Positions 10,148-56,260 of a stretch of DNA of 64,000 nucleotides are shown one piece after another. Origin of the DNA: Candidatus Minusculum obligatum (GTDB taxonomy: Bacteria; Patescibacteriota; Minisyncoccia; Phycocordibacterales; Phycocordibacteraceae); contig CP174360.1 in NCBI GenBank assembly GCA_045401155.1, positions 419,079 to 483,078 on the forward strand. The letters are read 5' to 3'. Numbering within the stretch: the stretch's first letter is position 1; every line of letters begins with the position of its first letter. Under the pieces are notes generated by a model. That model ran no database searches and was not told the DNA's origin. It was given only the letters and a program-made list of their open reading frames with translations. A program made the position numbers and the translations under genes.

Positions 10148-11827
10148 TTATTTTGATAATTTTTTTAATTGAGCCTCAATTTCTTCATCTTCAACCTTCT
10201 TAAACAACCCTTCTGCGCCAGAAACTTTATAAGTTTTTTGTGGTCGCCTATACTCCCAAGAAATAGAGTCTTTGTTCCCCAACATACCAAATATCTTTTC
10301 AGATGAACTTGGCACAAACGGATAAAAGAGAACTGCCAAGTTTTCAATAATATGAGCCAGTGAAGCTAGGTCTCCTGGAACATCATCACTATCATCTGTC
10401 TTTACCTTCTTCCAAGGGGCTTTACTATCGAGGTATCGATTACTCTCCTCAGCAATAGATAAGGCCTCTCTGAAAGCTTGTCGGAATTTTCCTGCTTCTA
10501 GCAACTCTCCAACAGCACTACAGCCCTCCTGAAGCTTTGAAACAAGGTTGGCGTCTCCACTTTGATATGCAACACCATCAGGATAATTGCGCTCAATAAA
10601 AGTCAGCACTCTGTTCACCAAATTTCCATATGTACCAATAAGCTCTCCATTTACGCGGTTTTGAAATTCTTTCCATGAGAAGTCAGTATCTCCACTTTCA
10701 GGACCATTAGCAATGAGGAAGTAGCGTAACAGTTCTCCATCAAACACCTCAAGAAATTCAGGAAGCCATACTGCCCATCCTCGGCTCTTTGAAAATTGCT
10801 TACCTTCCAGTGTTAGATACTCTGAAGATACGATTTGATTTGGCAAATGAAGTGATCCCTCAGCCTCCAAGATGCCTGGCCAGATAATCGTATGAAATGG
10901 AATGTTATCTTTTCCATGCACATAATAGTGTTTTGCTGTATCATTCTGCCACCAATCCGCAACACGGAGACCACGCTCTCTCGCCCAAATAACCGAGGCA
11001 GAGTAATATCCACACACAGCTTCAAACCACACATAGATCCTTTTATTCTCGTACCCCTCAAGCGGGATTGGCACTCCCCAGTCCGTATCACGGGTAACCG
11101 CACGATCTTGAAGACCTTGCTTTAGAAACGCTTTAGCAAAAGAGCTTGCATTTAGTCTCCACGAATCACTAGTCTCGGAGACCCACTTTGTAAGTTCCTC
11201 CTGAAGACCAGACAACTTTAGAAAAAAATGTTCTGTCTCACGTTCTTCTAACTTTAAGTCTTCTGGGGATACTCCTTCTTTTTGTGGAAGTATTTTTGTA
11301 TTAACACGTGGACCAATGAGTTCAAGAGGATCAAGAAGTTTTCCGCAGTCATCACACTGATCTCCGCGAGCTCCATCATATCCACAATGAGGACACTTTC
11401 CTTCAACAAACCTGTCAGGAAGGAAGCGATTTAAAAATGGAGAAAAAAGCGCCTTCTCTATTTTGGTGTATAGAAATCCTTTCTTATATAACTTCAGAAA
11501 TAATTCCTGCACTACCTCCGCGTGCCCCTTATCAGTTGTTGCGCCATATCTATCATATGAAAAATTAAGACCTTTTATCAAGGTGTTTTTAAACTCTTCA
11601 TGGTACTTTTCTGCAATCTCTTTGGGAGCAACGTTCTTATTTAAAGCTTCTACAGCAATAGGAGTACCATAACAATCACTTCCAGAAACAAAGAGTACAT
11701 CATCCCCCTTAACGCGATGATATCGAGCAAGCACATCTGCGCCAACAAATGCAGCTGCATGCCCAAGGTGAAGAGAGCCATTTGCATACGGCCATGCCAA
11801 CCCAATAAGTATGTTTTTCTTGCTCAT
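10148..11827 (-). CDS. metG: methionine--tRNA ligase
   Basis: HIGH-type motif (NGSLHLGHAAA), CxxC/CxxC zinc knuckles, KMSKS variant KFSKS. Confidence 0.95.
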   Translation of the reverse strand: MSKKNILIGLAWPYANGSLHLGHAAAFVGADVLARYHRVKGDDVLFVSGSDCYGTPIAVEALNKNVAPKEIAEKYHEEFKNTLIKGLNFSYDRYGATTDKGHAEVVQELFLKLYKKGFLYTKIEKALFSPFLNRFLPDRFVEGKCPHCGYDGARGDQCDDCGKLLDPLELIGPRVNTKILPQKEGVSPEDLKLEERETEHFFLKLSGLQEELTKWVSETSDSWRLNASSFAKAFLKQGLQDRAVTRDTDWGVPIPLEGYENKRIYVWFEAVCGYYSASVIWARERGLRVADWWQNDTAKHYYVHGKDNIPFHTIIWPGILEAEGSLHLPNQIVSSEYLTLEGKQFSKSRGWAVWLPEFLEVFDGELLRYFLIANGPESGDTDFSWKEFQNRVNGELIGTYGNLVNRVLTFIERNYPDGVAYQSGDANLVSKLQEGCSAVGELLEAGKFRQAFREALSIAEESNRYLDSKAPWKKVKTDDSDDVPGDLASLAHIIENLAVLFYPFVPSSSEKIFGMLGNKDSISWEYRRPQKTYKVSGAEGLFKKVEDEEIEAQLKKLSK

Positions 11828-11873
11828 ATAAAGCCATTTAACAACACTTGATAAGATAGGGCAAGATTATTTT

Positions 11874-11900
11874 AAAAGTGCCCCACCTGGGGCACTTTTT
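11874..11900. terminator. bidirectional intrinsic terminator downstream of dnaK
   Basis: AAAAGTGCCCC-ACCT-GGGGCACTTTTT: a perfect 11-bp stem flanked by A- and T-runs. Confidence 0.6.
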
Positions 11901-11901
11901 G

Positions 11902-13791
11902 TTACTTTTCTTCTTCTTTATTTTCTTCCTCCTTCACCTCAGCATCCTTTACTTCTTCTCCCTCTGAAGCTTTTTGCTCAGCCTCTGCTGCCTGCTTTTG
12001 AAGAATCTCTCCAATTTTTTGCATGCTTGTTGAAAGCTCTTCATTTGCTTTCTTAATAGCCTCAAGATCATCCTTATCTTTCACTTCATTAAGTGCAGTG
12101 ATCTTTCCTTCAATCTCAGCCTTTACATCAGCAGGAACCTTATCTCCCGCATCCTTTAGAGACTTCTCTGCCATATGGATCATCTGATCTCCCATATTTT
12201 TCGCTTCTACAAGCTCTTTCTTCTTCTTGTCTTCATCTGCATGCGCTTCAGCGTCCGCCTTCATCTTCTCAATATCTTCCTCTGAGAGTCCTGTTGCAGC
12301 TTCAATACGGATAGACTGTTCCTTATTAGTTGCCTTATCAAGTGCTTTTACATTTAGGATTCCGTTTGTATCCACATCAAAGGTAACTTCAATTTGTGGC
12401 ACTCCACGAGGAGCAGGCGCAATTCCATCTAGCACAAACCGTCCAAGAGACTTATTGTCTGCTGCCATGGCTCGCTCTCCCTGTGTAATGTGAATCTCTA
12501 CAGATGGCTGGTTATCTGCTGCAGTAGAAAATACCTGAGATTTTTGGGTTGGAATTGTTGTATTTCGCTCGATAAGCTTTGTTGCAACATTTCCCATGGT
12601 CTCAATTCCAAGAGAAAGAGGAATCACATCCACAAGAAGAATGTCCTTCACATCTCCCTGCATAATTCCTCCTTGGATACCCGCACCAAGAGCCACCACC
12701 TCATCTGGGTTAATTGATCGGTTTGGCTCTTTTCCAAAGAGTGCCTTTACTTCTTCTTGAATCTTAGGCATTCGTGTCTGCCCTCCTACAAGAATCACTT
12801 CATCAATATCAGATCCCTGCATTCCAGCAGCTTCAAGGGCACGCTTTGTAATATCAATTGAGCGTGTCACATACTCATCCGCAAGCTCCTCAAGCTTTCC
12901 TCGAGTAATAGTTAGCAGCAAGTGCTTTGGACCATCAGCATCTGAGGTAATAAATGGAATATTGATCTCAGTCTCTCCATTATTTGAAAGCTCGTGCTTT
13001 GCCTTCTCAGCAGCCTCATCTAGTCGCTGTAGCGCAAGTGGATCTTTACTTACATCAATACCACTTTCTTTCTTAAACTCCTCAGCAATGTGCTTTACAA
13101 GAGCCTGATCGATATCGCGTCCTCCCATGTGTGCATCTCCATCTGTCGCACGTACCTCAATCACATCATCTCCTACCTCTAGAATAGATACGTCAAAAGT
13201 ACCTCCTCCGAAGTCAAATACGGCAATCTTCTCATCCTTCTTTCGGTTAAATCCATATGCCAAAGCAGCTGCAGTTGGCTCATTGATGATTCGCTTTACC
13301 TCAAGACCTGCAATCTTTCCTGCAGCTTTTGTAGCGTTTCGCTGCGCATCGTCAAAGTATGCAGGTACTGTAATGATTGCCTCTGTGATCTTCTCTCCAG
13401 TTTTTGCCTCAGCATCCGCTTTCATCTTAGATAGAATCATTGCTGATACCTCCTCTGGCCGATAATCCTTATCTCCGAGAGTCACAAGCACACCATCATC
13501 TGATCCTTTCTTTAGCTCGTATGCCACGAACTCCTTATCTCGCTGCACAGACTTATCTTCAAAGCGATGCCCCATGAATCGCTTAATTCCATAGATGGTA
13601 TTCTTTGGATTTGTTACCGCTTGTCGCTTTGCGACTGTTCCTACCAAACGCTCTCCATTTTTAGCGATAGCCACTACAGAAGGTGTAGTTCGATTTCCAT
13701 CACTGTTTTCAATGATTGTTGGCTCTCCACCCTCAACAATAGCCATTGCTGAGTTTGTTGTTCCTAGGTCGATTCCGAGAATTTTACTCAT
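11902..13791 (-). CDS. dnaK: molecular chaperone DnaK (Hsp70)
   Basis: [18 protein letters not shown] and [11 protein letters not shown] signatures; acidic C-terminal tail. Confidence 0.97.
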
Positions 13792-52293: not shown

Positions 52294-52639
52294 ACTCTAG
52301 ACACATAGAGTTTACACAATGCCGGACATTTTTATCTGTCATCCCCTCTCCTTTAAATACATGTCCTAAGTGAGCACCACAATTTGCACACACAATCTCT
52401 GTGCGAATACCATCTGTATCTAAAACTTCCTCCACCGCACCATCTATCGCATCATCAAAACTTGGCCAACCGGTTCCTGAATCAAACTTTGCACCTGAAT
52501 CAAAGAGCTTTGCACCACAGCGCTTACACGTATACATTCCCTCCTCCTTGTGATCTATAAACTCACCAGTAAAAGGCATTTCCGTACCTTTATCTTCGAT
52601 AATACGTTTTTCTTCTGGAGTTAGTTCTTTCATTACCAC
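52274..52639 (-). CDS. msrB: peptide-methionine (R)-S-oxide reductase
   Basis: Two CxxC zinc pairs, GTGWPSF, RTEIVCANCGAHLGHVF. Confidence 0.95.
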   Translation of the reverse strand: MVMKELTPEEKRIIEDKGTEMPFTGEFIDHKEEGMYTCKRCGAKLFDSGAKFDSGTGWPSFDDAIDGAVEEVLDTDGIRTEIVCANCGAHLGHVFKGEGMTDKNVRHCVNSMCLEFEKDEK

Positions 52640-52660
52640 AAGTATATCAAAGAAAAATAC

Positions 52661-53602
52661 TTAGAGAGTCATGAAAAGAGCACCTTTGCTTCCATCTAAA
52701 TTAATTTCATAAATATTAAATTGTTCTTTTGCTCCAGGCATGCCTGGAGAACCGCTTGGCATACCTGCCATGCCAATACCTTTTATAGGCGGCCTTTCCG
52801 CAAGAAGCTTTTGTACAGCCTCTTCAGGAACATGTCCTTCAACCACGTACCCTCCAATCGTCATAGTATGACAGCTTCCAAGTTCACTTGGAACACCAAA
52901 CTGCTCTTTTATAGCAATGAGCTCATCTGTATTTTCTGCAACCACATCGTATCCCTTACCTTGAAGGTGTGCGACATATCCTGAACAACATCCACATGTA
53001 GGTGACTTATATACGGTTGCGATAATATCTTTTGCTTCAATCATTGCGACTTCGCTAGAACTGATCTCTCGATAAATATCACGCATGAGATTTATTTCTT
53101 CTGACTGATTTACAATGATTGCATTAGCAAGAGCTGTTATTTCTTCATGCTCTGCAATTGGAAGCACTGTTTGAGCCATCATGATTGCACCCATGTGATG
53201 CATAGTCATATCATGAAGGAATACTCGATCAAGATTTTCTCCTGAAAGAGATTCGAGCTCCCTCATCATGGGCACGTACACGCCCTGATCTATGTACTCT
53301 TCTTCATACCACTTCTTATAATTTTCCTTCATTTGAGCGACTTCTTTTGTCTGTGTTGAGATAATGTTTTCTGAGAGAGAAACCATACGCTCTACTGTTC
53401 CGCCACGCCCAAGAACTTCTTGTGCTGTAGAAATAGCCTCTTCGTGGTGTGGAATCATGTGCTCTAAAAATTCACGCTCATTAGAGAAGTTTGGAACCAT
53501 CGCATGTTGTACCGGTTGCTTTTCCATAAATGAATTGTTTAAAAACAAAACTGCCACAGCAACCACAACCCCTCCCAAAAGAATTAATCCTGCATTTTTC
53601 AT
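52661..53602 (-). CDS. DUF305 (ferritin-like, HH-motif) fused to CopG/DUF411-like CxCC metal-binding domain; putative periplasmic copper-homeostasis protein
   Basis: Signal/TM N-terminus; twin HH motifs (MIPHHEEAI, MTMHHMGAIMMAQ); C-terminal TCGCCSG...SCHTM, a CopG-type CxCC motif. Confidence 0.65.
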   Translation of the reverse strand: MKNAGLILLGGVVVAVAVLFLNNSFMEKQPVQHAMVPNFSNEREFLEHMIPHHEEAISTAQEVLGRGGTVERMVSLSENIISTQTKEVAQMKENYKKWYEEEYIDQGVYVPMMRELESLSGENLDRVFLHDMTMHHMGAIMMAQTVLPIAEHEEITALANAIIVNQSEEINLMRDIYREISSSEVAMIEAKDIIATVYKSPTCGCCSGYVAHLQGKGYDVVAENTDELIAIKEQFGVPSELGSCHTMTIGGYVVEGHVPEEAVQKLLAERPPIKGIGMAGMPSGSPGMPGAKEQFNIYEINLDGSKGALFMTL

Positions 53603-53662
53603 AGTTTTCCAATTCTACACTAGTAAACAAAAGACGTTAAATTCATTTGCTACACTGTATGC

Positions 53663-54115
53663 ATGAACCACTATAAAAATCTTTTTCTTTCAATTGCAAC
53701 AAGCTTTTTAGTAATGTACGCGCTTACGTATATTGCTGTATACGCATGGGGTGACATCTATTTATTTAGCACCCGAAGTTTATACATGGCTATGATCATG
53801 ATTGCGCCAATGATCTTGATTATGCTCATTTTTATGGGAAACATGTATAAAAACAAAAAACTAAATACTGCATTGTACGTATTTAGTATTGGCTTATTTT
53901 TTCTCTCTTTCCTCTTTATACGAAAGCAAGTGTTTGTAGACGATACACAATTTTTACGCTCTATGATTCCCCACCACTCAAGCGCAATTACCATGTGTAA
54001 AGAAAGTTCCCTATCTGACTCAGAAGTTATTGAGCTTTGCGAGAACATCATTACTGCTCAACAAAAAGAAATAGACCAGATGAACTCTATTTTAGAACGA
54101 CTAAAAAATAACTAG
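53663..54115 (+). CDS. membrane-anchored DUF305-like protein (single HH repeat)
   Basis: Three TM helices, then MIPHHSSAITM...CENIITAQQKEIDQM. Paralogous to the N-terminal half of the divergent 52661..53602 product. Confidence 0.5.
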   Translation: MNHYKNLFLSIATSFLVMYALTYIAVYAWGDIYLFSTRSLYMAMIMIAPMILIMLIFMGNMYKNKKLNTALYVFSIGLFFLSFLFIRKQVFVDDTQFLRSMIPHHSSAITMCKESSLSDSEVIELCENIITAQQKEIDQMNSILERLKNN

Positions 54116-54131
54116 AGCTAAAGAAAGTTAA

Positions 54132-54189
54132 GTTAAAAAGAAAAACCAGCAGTCGCTGGAATTTCTTTTTTTGGATTTATCCAAAATTG
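54132..54189. repeat. 58-bp direct repeat copy 1 (bidirectional terminator hairpin + TTTGGAT-NN-ATCCAAA palindrome)
   Basis: gttaaaaagaaaaaCCAGCagtcGCTGGaatttctttttttGGATttATCCaaaattg. Identical to 55032..55089 except for 3 nt; the two copies are exactly 900 bp apart. Confidence 0.85.
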
Positions 54190-54219
54190 AAGCGATTAGG
54201 AGCTGGTTGGAATCTTTAC

Positions 54220-54819
54220 TTAACTAAGACTCTTAAGATCTTCAATAATCTCTGAAAACTCATTCTCATTGAAGTGTCCTCTGTCTTTAAATGCTCGTAT
54301 ACGAGCATTTGGTAACAACTCTTGATATCTTGATAAGTGAGAGAACGGAACAACCTGATCATCCTCGCTATGATACAGATAAATATCTGACACCTGTTCA
54401 CGAAGCAATGAAAGGTCATTCTCAATATTAAAGTCCACATATGGATCTTTTTCTATTGAATTAAATGGTGCAGCAACTAAAAACAGTGCTTTAATTTCTT
54501 TTTGATATTTTTCTTCAGAAAGATACTTTGCAAGAAATATTGCACCTAGAGAATGCCCAATACACACCACCTTCTCATCAAGAAGTGGAACTATCTTTTC
54601 AAACATTATCTTCCACTCAGAATATTTTGCATTATCTCTGCAAGGCATTGATGGCATGAGAATATCGTAACCATCTCCTAAAACAGATTGCAGATGCATC
54701 TTCCAACCACCGGGCCGTAATCTAGTCAGTGTTATTTCTTTCTCTTTGAGTGCTTGGAGGTATCCATCATGAGTTTCGTATGCACTTCCTCCACTAATAA
54801 CAACAATTTGTTTTTTCAT
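54220..54819 (-). CDS. alpha/beta hydrolase, YdeN/RBBP9-like serine hydrolase
   Basis: Nucleophile elbow GHSLGA with downstream Asp/His. The start is placed at MKKQIVVISGG, because the longer track ORF (to 54885) would read through a GC-rich terminator hairpin. Confidence 0.7.
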   Translation of the reverse strand: MKKQIVVISGGSAYETHDGYLQALKEKEITLTRLRPGGWKMHLQSVLGDGYDILMPSMPCRDNAKYSEWKIMFEKIVPLLDEKVVCIGHSLGAIFLAKYLSEEKYQKEIKALFLVAAPFNSIEKDPYVDFNIENDLSLLREQVSDIYLYHSEDDQVVPFSHLSRYQELLPNARIRAFKDRGHFNENEFSEIIEDLKSLS

Positions 54820-54832
54820 ATTAAAAGTATAA

Positions 54833-55005
54833 CAAAAAAGGAAAAGCCCCTCCTGAGCACCATGAAGGCGGGAGGGGCTGACCATAGCCAGACATTGTCT
54901 GACCGTATTTGCCCCTGGGTCTCTAGAGCTCTTGCTCTTTGTAGGCGTGCACTTACGCCTCGTTGTTCGGTCGAAGACCTACTCCCAGGGAAGAAAACTG
55001 ATCCA
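54833..55005 (-). ncRNA. candidate structured 5' leader (riboswitch/attenuator) or small RNA ending in an intrinsic terminator
   Basis: A roughly 170-nt GC-rich island in an AT-rich intergenic region. Predicted hairpins: GGUC-UUCG-GACC, GGCGU-AAGUGC-ACGCC, CAGAC-AAU-GUCUG, a CCCUGGG...CCCAGGG closing helix, then GCCCCUCC-N15-GGAGGGGC plus UUUUCCUUUUUU 13 nt before the hydrolase ATG. A perfect TATAAT lies just upstream at 55012..55017. Confidence 0.35.
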
Positions 55006-55031
55006 AAATAAATTATATTGAATAATAATTT

Positions 55032-55089
55032 TTTGTCAAAAAGAAAAACCAGCAGTCGCTGGAATTTCTTTTTTTGGATAAATCCAAAA
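55032..55089. repeat. 58-bp direct repeat copy 2 (terminator for tRNA-Ala)
   Basis: Same sequence as 54132..54189 with tt to aa in the palindrome loop and t to c at the 5' edge. Immediately 3' of tRNA-Ala. Confidence 0.85.
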
Positions 55090-55092
55090 TTG

Positions 55093-55166
55093 TGGACTCG
55101 AGAGGAATCGAACCCCCGACCTCCTCAGTGCAAATGAGGCGCTCTAGCCAACTGAGCTACGAGCCC
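55093..55166 (-). tRNA. tRNA-Ala (anticodon UGC)
   Basis: Manual fold: acceptor GGGCUCG/CGAGUCC with the G3:U70 Ala identity pair, D-arm GCUC-AGUUGGCUA-GAGC, anticodon stem CCUCA/UGAGG with loop UUUGCAC, T-loop GGUUCGAUUCC, discriminator A. CCA is not encoded. Confidence 0.9.
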
Positions 55167-55336
55167 ATAAATGCGCATACGCGCAAAATGAGCAGCGGGA
55201 GGCGGAGCAAGGACGAACGTCCTACCTGAACGCTCCGCCTCCCCGTTCGCTGGAGTACGGCTCATGAACGAACCAATGGGGACGGTGCCCACTGCCTGCT
55301 CGGAACTAAGCGAACGTAAGTAGGAGAATACAAGAC

Positions 55337-56260
55337 TTATCGCTTTAGCGCAAGGTCTTTTACATGTGCAATAAACTCTTCTGTATTTGAGCCAACTGCA
55401 GAAAGCGCCTTAGAAAATAGTGATCCCTCATGGAATTTTGGAAGTGCGTTTGCCTCAAGGAAGTACACCTTTCGTGGAGTCACCAAGAAATCCACCTTTG
55501 CATAATGCCGAAGATCAAGGGCTTTAAACACTTCCTTCGTAGACGCTTCAATAATCTCTTTTTGTTCTCTACTAAAACTTCCTGGGCACCGGTCTCTCCA
55601 CTCTCCATTTATCTTCTCAATCTCAACAGGAGGAATAAGATACAAGGGTGTATCTCTATACCCTTCAATAATGTAGACGCTTGCCTCCTTTCCTCGAATA
55701 AACTCCTCAAACACAATTGGACCGTGCTCAATTAGCTCATGAGATGCGTCATAGAGCTCCTCTGGTGTCGTTGCAATACGTACCCAATGACTTCCCTCGC
55801 CAAACACTGACTTAACTACAATCGGAAGACCTAAGTTACGAACTGCAAGCGCACCCCTTGCCTCTATATCTTCTGTCTTCTCACATAAAACATACCGTGG
55901 AATATCAATGCCTCGTTCTTTCACGGTCTCCTTTGAAAGCACTTTGTGTGAACAAATAAATGATGGGAGCGCTGTAGATCCTGTAAATGGAACCTTGTGT
56001 TGATTTAGAATCTTCTGCACTTTCCCGTCCTCTCCATATGGCCCATGTAGTGCATTAAACACAAGATCAACCATCGTCAAAACCTTGTGAGGATCCACTG
56101 GACGCCCTCTGTCATGCCATACGCCATCTTTATCTATAAAGACATCTCTATGCGTCCCCGGAGACGAATAGAGATGATCTAATACGAGCTGACCACTTTT
56201 AAGAGAAGCTTTGTGATCTAGAGAGGGCCCACCACGAAGTACAGCTACAACATTACTCAT
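55337..56260 (-). CDS. ddl: D-alanine--D-alanine ligase
   Basis: ATP-grasp fold; N-terminal VAVLRGGPSLDH and FNALHGPYGEDGKVQ, C-terminal LEANALP. Confidence 0.9.
   Translation of the reverse strand: MSNVVAVLRGGPSLDHKASLKSGQLVLDHLYSSPGTHRDVFIDKDGVWHDRGRPVDPHKVLTMVDLVFNALHGPYGEDGKVQKILNQHKVPFTGSTALPSFICSHKVLSKETVKERGIDIPRYVLCEKTEDIEARGALAVRNLGLPIVVKSVFGEGSHWVRIATTPEELYDASHELIEHGPIVFEEFIRGKEASVYIIEGYRDTPLYLIPPVEIEKINGEWRDRCPGSFSREQKEIIEASTKEVFKALDLRHYAKVDFLVTPRKVYFLEANALPKFHEGSLFSKALSAVGSNTEEFIAHVKDLALKR

Follow-up and report, generated by a model that had tools for sequence, protein, structure and literature searches.

The stretch of DNA analysed here, referred to as the window, comprises 64 kb of the 579-kb genome of Candidatus Minusculum obligatum (GenBank contig CP174360.1, positions 419,079 to 483,078). 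Patescibacteria, also known as the Candidate Phyla Radiation, have tiny, syntenic genomes, and the routes by which they gain genes are little understood. The locus of interest lies at the 3' end of a gene for tRNA-Ala(UGC). Read along the minus strand, this gene is followed by one copy of a 58-bp repeat, a sigma-70-type promoter, a GC-rich structured RNA, a gene for an alpha/beta serine hydrolase, a 21-nt motif and a second copy of the 58-bp repeat, beyond which a DUF305 gene converges on the hydrolase gene (Table 1). The hydrolase is identical to NCBI entry XKT75061.1 (Patescibacteria group bacterium UBA2103). We consider it likely that the 845-bp segment between the repeats is a cassette that was inserted beside tRNA-Ala in the UBA2103 lineage, and that the native 3' trailer of the tRNA was duplicated by the insertion.

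The repeat reads GT(T/C)AAAAAGAAAAACCAGCAGTCGCTGGAATTTCTTTTTTTGGAT(TT/AA)ATCCAAAATTG, and its two copies are identical at 55 of the 58 positions. This near-identity had been reported in the initial annotation of the stretch and is well beyond chance: the exact 42-nt core occurs twice in the window, versus 0.00 occurrences expected from shuffled sequences. The position then given for copy 1 was correct; copy 2 had been placed at 55032–55089 and is in fact found three positions further on. The copies start 903 bp apart (not exactly 900 bp) and enclose 845 bp (not 842 bp) of unique sequence. Copy 2 adjoins the 3' end of tRNA-Ala and copy 1 lies beside the convergent DUF305 and hydrolase genes, both as previously described. 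The three mismatches between the copies are the third base (T or C) and the dinucleotide at the centre of a palindrome, TTTGGAT-NN-ATCCAAA, which is TT in one copy and AA in the other, again as had been noted. The arms are perfectly palindromic, and the palindrome of copy 1 is the exact reverse complement of that of copy 2. Outside the 58 nt the flanks of the two copies have nothing in common.

Table 1. Features of the tRNA-Ala locus, in coordinates of the window.
Feature	Position	Strand	Remarks
Variable slot	52294..55092	minus	hydrolase cassette, DUF305, DUF305-DUF411, msrB
DUF305 gene	53663..54115	plus	convergent on hydrolase; terminator module conserved next to its 3' end
Repeat copy 1 (T1)	54132-54189	minus	between convergent hydrolase and DUF305 genes, far cassette end
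Terminator hairpin, copy 1	54146-54159		
Palindrome TTTGGAT-WW-ATCCAAA, copy 1	54169-54186		18 bp
Cassette-end motif AGATTCCAACCAGCTCCTAAT	54195..54215	minus	21 nt; starts 4 nt past hydrolase stop, ends 5 nt before copy 1
Alpha/beta serine hydrolase	54220..54819	minus	cassette cargo; 199 aa; Pfam Ser_hydrolase PF06821; GHSLG nucleophile elbow
Extended -10-like TGTTATACT	54826..54834	minus	6 nt upstream of hydrolase ATG; read from sequence
Orphan GC-rich structured RNA	54826..55005 (ends approximate)	minus	~175 nt; minimum free energy -69.9 kcal/mol, z -3.6
Sigma-70-type promoter TTGACA-16 nt-TATAAT	55012..55039	minus	12/12 consensus match
Repeat copy 2 (T2)	55035-55092	minus	tRNA-Ala trailer/terminator, native position abutting tRNA 3' end
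Terminator hairpin, copy 2	55049-55062		
Palindrome TTTGGAT-WW-ATCCAAA, copy 2	55072-55089		18 bp
tRNA-Ala(UGC)	55093..55166	minus	ARAGORN and Rfam, 66.2 bits
GC-rich structured RNA-like insert	55167..55315	minus	149 nt; z -4.3
ddl	56260..55337	minus	upstream of tRNA-Ala; 170-nt spacer with GC-rich structured insert

Each copy of the repeat folds as two adjacent hairpins, a terminator and the 18-bp palindrome (ΔG of −18.5 to −21 kcal/mol, z-scores of −3.4 to −5.7). The terminator hairpin, CCAGC-NNNN-GCTGG, is located between an A-tract and a U-tract; its stem of 5 bp, four of them G-C pairs, is lengthened by pairing of the two tracts. In both copies it scores as a terminator on both strands, which fits the bidirectional terminator proposed in the initial annotation, and termination at either copy is predicted from these folds. 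The positions of the module agree with such a role. In the window and in the loci of relatives (given here by L numbers) it stands at the 3' ends of transcription units and in orthologous positions, namely after tRNA-Ala in the window, L018/L019 and L020, and after DUF305 in the window and L022. In these orthologous modules the stem is kept and the loops of both hairpins vary.

The module has the marks of known bidirectional intrinsic terminators: a GC stem (CCAGC/GCTGG) amid A- and U-tracts that is conserved while its loop varies, located both downstream of a tRNA and between convergent genes. It differs from them in that it is fused to an invariant upstream palindrome, whose conservation in sequence is not needed for termination. 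Across four lineages, none of the 14 columns of the palindrome arms varied, versus 16 of the 44 other columns of the module (p = 0.006). Because this invariance in sequence goes beyond what an RNA hairpin requires, it suggests that the palindrome is a site recognised by a protein.

The origin of the two copies was addressed by comparison of the locus in relatives, as had been proposed in the initial annotation. The ddl genes of the relatives are 91% (L013) and 76–79% identical to that of the window, and the flanks are syntenic: uvrC ... CARDB-ddl-tRNA-Ala precedes the variable interval and tag-tspO-DUF378-atp operon follows it. Within this interval, L018/L019 encode a 308-aa protein and L020 an HD protein. 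In L014–L017 the same interval holds a 520-aa large serine recombinase, the 3' end of which overlaps the tRNA, together with an AAA_15/21 ATPase and other genes. GC-rich foreign DNA follows tRNA-Ala in L013, and L022/L023 contain two tandem GC-rich single-gene elements with identical ends, followed by DUF305, DUF305-DUF411, NUDIX and a small open reading frame (ORF). In six lineages the sequence diverges right after the ...TCCAC of the tRNA. These comparisons mark the slot from tRNA-Ala to tag as an insertion hotspot, with cargo that is different in each lineage examined.

The relatives carry the module in single copy. In L018/L019 and L020 (three contigs, two lineages) one module follows the tRNA directly and there is no hydrolase; it reads CCAGG-TTTGGAT(AT|AA)ATCCAAAA-...-CCAGC(ACAT|GTAT)GCTGG-TTTTTCTTTT, with the same stems as in the window and differences in both loops. 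In L022/L023 (one lineage) the sole full module is found past the stop codon of the DUF305 orthologue, and different inserts lie between the module and the tRNA. Positions 52670–54188 of the window, copy 1 included, are colinear with L022 9008–10517 at 84%. The tRNA-side position of the module is therefore occupied in some relatives and the DUF305-side position in another; both are occupied only in UBA2103. None of the relatives' loci contains a counterpart of the 845-bp interior, and the unit of about 900 bp as a whole is absent from them. The two copies are 94.8% identical to each other versus 78–90% to the orthologous trailers, which dates the duplication after the split from these lineages. 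Where the copies differ (three positions), copy 2 has the bases of L022; in copy 1 a −35-like TTGAC has become TTAAC.

On this sequence evidence the 58-mer is the native 3' trailer and predicted bidirectional terminator of tRNA-Ala(UGC) and not a new repeat family. The earlier suggestion that the direct repeats are the footprint of a site-specific insertion beside a tRNA gene is therefore retained in part. Insertion is well supported, the relatives having a single copy and no hydrolase, and site specificity is a plausible extension of it; the repeat does not correspond to a classic tRNA attachment (att) site, being the trailer of the host and not an att site of the element.

The same data could in principle be produced if both copies were old, that is, if an ancestral arrangement tRNA-terminator-hydrolase-terminator-DUF305 had been kept in UBA2103, with gene conversion between the copies, and the cassette had been lost independently in the relatives. 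Homogenisation is indeed feasible for short repeats 0.9 kb apart, and a deletion that recombines the direct repeats would excise the cassette precisely and retain a single copy, the state observed in the relatives. However, independent losses would be required in at least three lineages (L018/19, L020 and L022), no trace of promoter, RNA or hydrolase is present in any relative, and the slot demonstrably acquires different DNA in each lineage. Moreover, in a set of 5.8 billion proteins the hydrolase has no other homologue above 60% identity, and the homologues reside at other genomic places. We regard this explanation as unlikely.

Several observations weigh against an insertion at tRNA-Ala with duplication of the trailer. 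The 58-mer holds no tRNA sequence: the repeat starts at 55092, the first base past the tRNA, unlike a classic tRNA att site. Statistics lend no convincing support to a resemblance between the cassette-end motif and either the tRNA-Ala 3' end or the terminator arm (p of about 0.04–0.06). The nearest relative, L013, carries other DNA downstream of the tRNA, and its contig stops after a further 0.7 kb; it does not provide an empty site from the same species. Thirty ORFs of 170 aa or longer from positions 881–41177 of the window were scanned together with the genes of the locus, and none encodes a recognisable recombinase, transposase or integrase. Finally, the copy counts cover the 64-kb window of the 579-kb genome and about 59 kb of distinct loci of relatives. 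The lack of an integrase in the cassette had been pointed out in the initial annotation and extends to these scanned ORFs; a large serine recombinase at this tRNA is present only in the relatives L014–L017. Measured against tRNA-targeting elements in general, insertion at a tRNA and absence from relatives were both observed, while repeats of the 3' part of the tRNA and an integrase of its own were not. The 5 nt preceding copy 1 (CGCTT) differ from the tRNA end.

The alternative raised in the initial annotation, that the 58-mer is a dispersed terminator resembling a repetitive extragenic palindromic (REP) element or a miniature inverted-repeat transposable element (MITE) and is found twice here by happenstance, is very unlikely in view of where the copies occur. 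The 58-mer is a compact double palindrome, and the palindrome half recurs at three sites in L022, both of which would suit such an element. In the sequence covered the copies nevertheless keep to one locus: two in 64 kb, and in about 59 kb of distinct loci of relatives all of them inside the tRNA-Ala-to-tag slot. There are no terminal inverted repeats, the palindromes being internal only, and there is no target-site duplication. Cores of 20–23 nt had no true match in genome, metagenome or viral contig collections. The 23-mer core gave no match in genome_contigs, and the 20-mer core gave 7 matches in metagenome_contigs, all by chance within GC-rich coding sequence. Four DNA-pattern scans of viral contigs returned nothing, or chance matches in coding DNA and in a giant-virus metagenome-assembled genome. 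The whole 961-bp unit had no match in phage or plasmid collections. Searching by exact protein sequence with the hydrolase and ddl of the window returned no record, and a ddl-based scan of representative genomes yielded no relative.

The repeat, its orthology to the single trailers, the absence of the cassette from the relatives and the hotspot character of the slot were established by comparison of the sequences; the crossover mechanism, the recombinase and termination itself we infer. In the ancestor a single trailer/terminator would have separated tRNA-Ala from the convergent DUF305 gene. The cassette, consisting of promoter, orphan RNA, hydrolase gene and 21-nt end motif, would then have entered at the 3' boundary of the tRNA in the UBA2103 lineage. 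The likeliest route would be a single crossover between the chromosomal trailer and a trailer copy on a circular or donor cassette, leaving one trailer on either side of the cassette, like attL and attR. The agent would more likely be a recombinase whose gene lies elsewhere in the genome and which acts at the junction ...TCCAC / 4 nt / palindrome; short-homology exchange with a related strain would be the alternative. At present, copy 2 would terminate the tRNA transcript and lend its −35 sequence to the cassette promoter, and copy 1 would end both of the transcripts that converge on it, from the hydrolase and the DUF305 gene. An event of this kind is known; the miniature, integrase-less architecture of the cassette, beside two orphan structured RNAs, is unusual.

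The junction itself recurs. In seven aligned junctions the palindrome TTTGGAT-WW-ATCCAAAA is invariant and is preceded by 4 nt, before which stands the tRNA end (...GTCCAC), or ...CCCCAC, or the 21-nt motif ending in ...GCTCCAC; one form of the junction is ...TCCAC-N4-TTTGGATWWATCCAAA. The cassette-end motif, which can also be given as AGATTCCAACCAGCTCCTAAY, is present in single copy in the window. L022/L023 contain three copies with a 20/21 match, all of which mark the 3' end of a gene or cassette; two run into the same palindrome and bound units of 495 bp (NUDIX) and 380 bp (small ORF). L020 has a diverged copy immediately upstream of tag. A search for partial tRNAs gave no match to the motif, which has only GATTCC...TCCAC-like edges in common with the tRNA.

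Recurrence of the junction bears on whether a dedicated recombinase is needed at all. Ordinary homologous or short-homology exchange after uptake of DNA from a related strain could have delivered the cassette, provided that in the donor it stood after the tRNA trailer and ended in motif and palindrome. No missing integrase would have to be invoked. In L018 and L020 the cargo gene indeed begins right after the trailer, with a promoter overlapping the trailer end, and the cassette boundaries in L022 end in the same palindrome, which would offer 18–25 bp of homology for the second crossover. Yet the reuse of one precise junction (...TCCAC, 4 nt, palindrome) by unrelated cargo, and the invariance of the palindrome, are more typical of a site recognised by a protein. 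Such an exchange is possible, although we do not favour it, and it is a sub-variant of insertion with duplication of the trailer, not a contradiction of it.

The properties of the palindrome also allow the two copies to be viewed as oppositely polarised serine-invertase sites of the hix/gix type, in which case the 0.9-kb segment with its promoter would be an invertible switch. The arms are invariant and perfect, the 2-bp centre is non-palindromic and inverted between the copies, the NUDIX cassette of L022 is likewise flanked by AA and TT centres, one relative has a serine recombinase at this tRNA, and a strong promoter lies near one end of the segment. But the 40 bp flanking the palindrome are repeated directly and not inverted, and no invertase or resolvase gene is present in or near the segment. 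The centre is a hairpin loop, which is AT in L018, and flipping or drift of the loop would suffice; opposition of TT and AA in two cassettes is expected by chance in about 1 in 4 cases. Of all the explanations considered, we hold inversion to be the least probable.

A more far-reaching proposal than the single insertion is put forward tentatively, as one that may well prove wrong. The marine Patescibacteria of this clade may carry a previously undescribed, integrase-less array of mini-cassettes at tRNA-Ala, in which single genes of 0.4–0.9 kb are shuffled via a site of about 55 nt, composed of a pseudo-tRNA-end motif (GATTCC...TCCAC), 4 nt and the palindrome TTTGGAT-WW-ATCCAAA. The shuffling would be performed by a recombinase encoded elsewhere in the genome, possibly of the serine type and cutting at WW; the hydrolase unit would be an example of such a cassette, with the 58-bp duplication as attL and attR. 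If so, an ultra-small genome would contain a functional analogue of integrons or tycheposons.

The insertion at tRNA-Ala was compared with known systems. The tycheposons of Prochlorococcus have partial-tRNA att repeats, tandem elements and degraded remnants (bioRxiv 10.1101/2020.12.28.424599). The locus resembles them as a tRNA-adjacent hotspot in a streamlined marine-type genome, with lineage-specific cargo and att-like repeats between units. Tandem insertions also seem to push older ones inward (in L022, with two elements that have identical ends), and an element with a serine recombinase occurs at the same tRNA in a relative. In contrast to tycheposons, the repeat is here the trailer/terminator of the tRNA without tRNA sequence, the unit comprises a single gene and just 0.9 kb, there is no integrase or replication gene, and the end motif is no copy of the tRNA-Ala 3' end.

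With integron cassettes and clusters of attC sites lacking integron integrases (CALINs) the locus has in common co-oriented single-gene units of 0.4–0.9 kb, palindrome-containing repeats of about 55 nt between them, and no integrase nearby. It differs in having no IntI (no Phage_integrase match in the scanned ORFs of the window), in being anchored at a tRNA and not at attI, and in that the hydrolase cassette has a strong promoter of its own. An attC site as such was rejected: the repeat forms two independent hairpins (or motif plus hairpin) and not one imperfect R''-L''/L'-R' hairpin, and its ends (CAATTTT ... TTTTRAC, read in the sense of the tRNA) neither form inverse repeats nor conform to RYYYAAC/GTTRRRY.

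Cis-mobilisable elements (CIMEs) consist of att-flanked DNA without recombination genes of its own, as in ICESt1/CIME of Streptococcus thermophilus. They share with the locus the direct att-like repeats around integrase-less cargo, at a site used by integrase-bearing elements of relatives. Here, however, no cognate integrative element with matching att sites was identified, and the unit is far smaller. Whatever the agent, the locus represents a precise, repeatedly used entry point for genes at the 3' end of tRNA-Ala, with lineage-specific cargo. If its boundaries are true recombination sites, they would define a miniature cassette system and a searchable signature for flexible genes in the phylum. 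For annotation, the lesson is that the 58-mer is to be read as a terminator that was probably duplicated as a by-product of insertion.

The promoter within the cassette is the sole perfect sigma-70 site in the window (0.03 expected). Its −35 element overlaps the end of copy 2, of which it uses the distal TTGAC; copy 1 reads TTAAC at this position. Downstream, the orphan RNA has a GC content of 54% versus 42% for the window. The remaining GC-rich peaks in the window are ribosomal-protein genes and not RNAs. In the predicted fold, a stem P1 (54982–54990 with 54912–54921) closes around three hairpins and is followed by another hairpin and a strong intrinsic terminator (54834–54880). When the 3' arm of this terminator is omitted from the fold, the 3' strand of P1 (GGGGC) can pair with the 5' arm of the terminator (GCCCC); a switch-like alternative fold is therefore possible on the model. 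A 200-nt query gave no Rfam family even at E<10, and signal recognition particle RNA, 6S RNA, RNase P, a T-box and a ribozyme were ruled out on this basis. No similar sequence was found in the loci of relatives, in phages or in plasmids. A riboswitch or leader belonging to the hydrolase family was considered as well. The four closest homologues of the hydrolase, which reside in unrelated neighbourhoods, have upstream spacers of 0–45 nt and no such RNA, so that the RNA does not qualify as a leader conserved in this family.

The gene bracketed by the repeats had been annotated as an alpha/beta hydrolase, in agreement with the Pfam assignment in Table 1; its best other homologue is 60% identical. 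No Shine-Dalgarno sequence precedes it (positions 54817–54834). The extended −10-like sequence may, from its position, be a second promoter, giving rise to a leaderless hydrolase mRNA that starts within the U-tail of the upstream terminator.

Elsewhere in the slot, positions 52661–54115 of the window contain two divergent DUF305 paralogues followed by msrB; one of the paralogues is fused to DUF411 and the other is short, with predicted N-terminal membrane segments. L022 has a NUDIX cassette in place of msrB. The slot seems to be an accessory region enriched in small stress- or metal-related genes. In the minus-strand mini-array of L022 (8100–9000) the order is DUF305-DUF411 stop codon, motif plus palindrome, NUDIX, motif plus palindrome, a small ORF on the opposite strand, motif, terminator and tag. 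The repeat units are 495 and 380 bp long, with AA and TT alternating as the palindrome centre.

In L022 the terminator module is separated from tRNA-Ala by two tandem single-gene elements (10519–13620), which are GC-rich (~50%) and encode proteins of 539 and 280 aa without Pfam domains. Both start and end alike, with (C/T)AACGTCAAGGCTTGGAAATTTGCACACGAG... at one end and ...GTTCGACCTAACTTCCGATCAACCCCAC at the other, and they look like successive integrations at ...CCAC with nearly no common core. In L014–L017 (L014 7053–12924) the recombinase has the domains Resolvase and Zn_ribbon_recom and is followed by small ORFs and an AAA_15/AAA_21 ATPase of 603–615 aa. This locus looks like an integrated element, perhaps with a defence gene; its far end lies outside the fetched flank, and its length is at least 5.8 kb. 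Scans of viral contigs with the serine recombinase of the relative and with the 539-aa protein gave nothing useful.

The tRNA-Ala gene is 100% identical to that of L013. In neither is the CCA end encoded by the gene: CAA follows in the window (55090–55093) and CAC in L013 (3119–3122). CCA is encoded in L014, L018, L020 and L022. The site of this change coincides with the start of the inserted DNA.

Upstream of the tRNA, outside the repeat and within the same variable tRNA locus, the 149-nt GC-rich insert is situated exactly between the conserved 21-nt ddl-tRNA spacer, which ends in TTAC or GTAC, and base 1 of the tRNA. It has no Rfam match. Homologous inserts (107–149 nt with that of the window included) are present in L013 (2920–3044) and L014–L017 (L014 6945–7052) and absent from L018–L020 and L022. 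In the three sequences the long stem of the insert stays paired through two-sided changes in 5–6 pairs. The insert could be a leader RNA co-transcribed with the tRNA, or a small mobile element targeting the 5' boundary of the tRNA.

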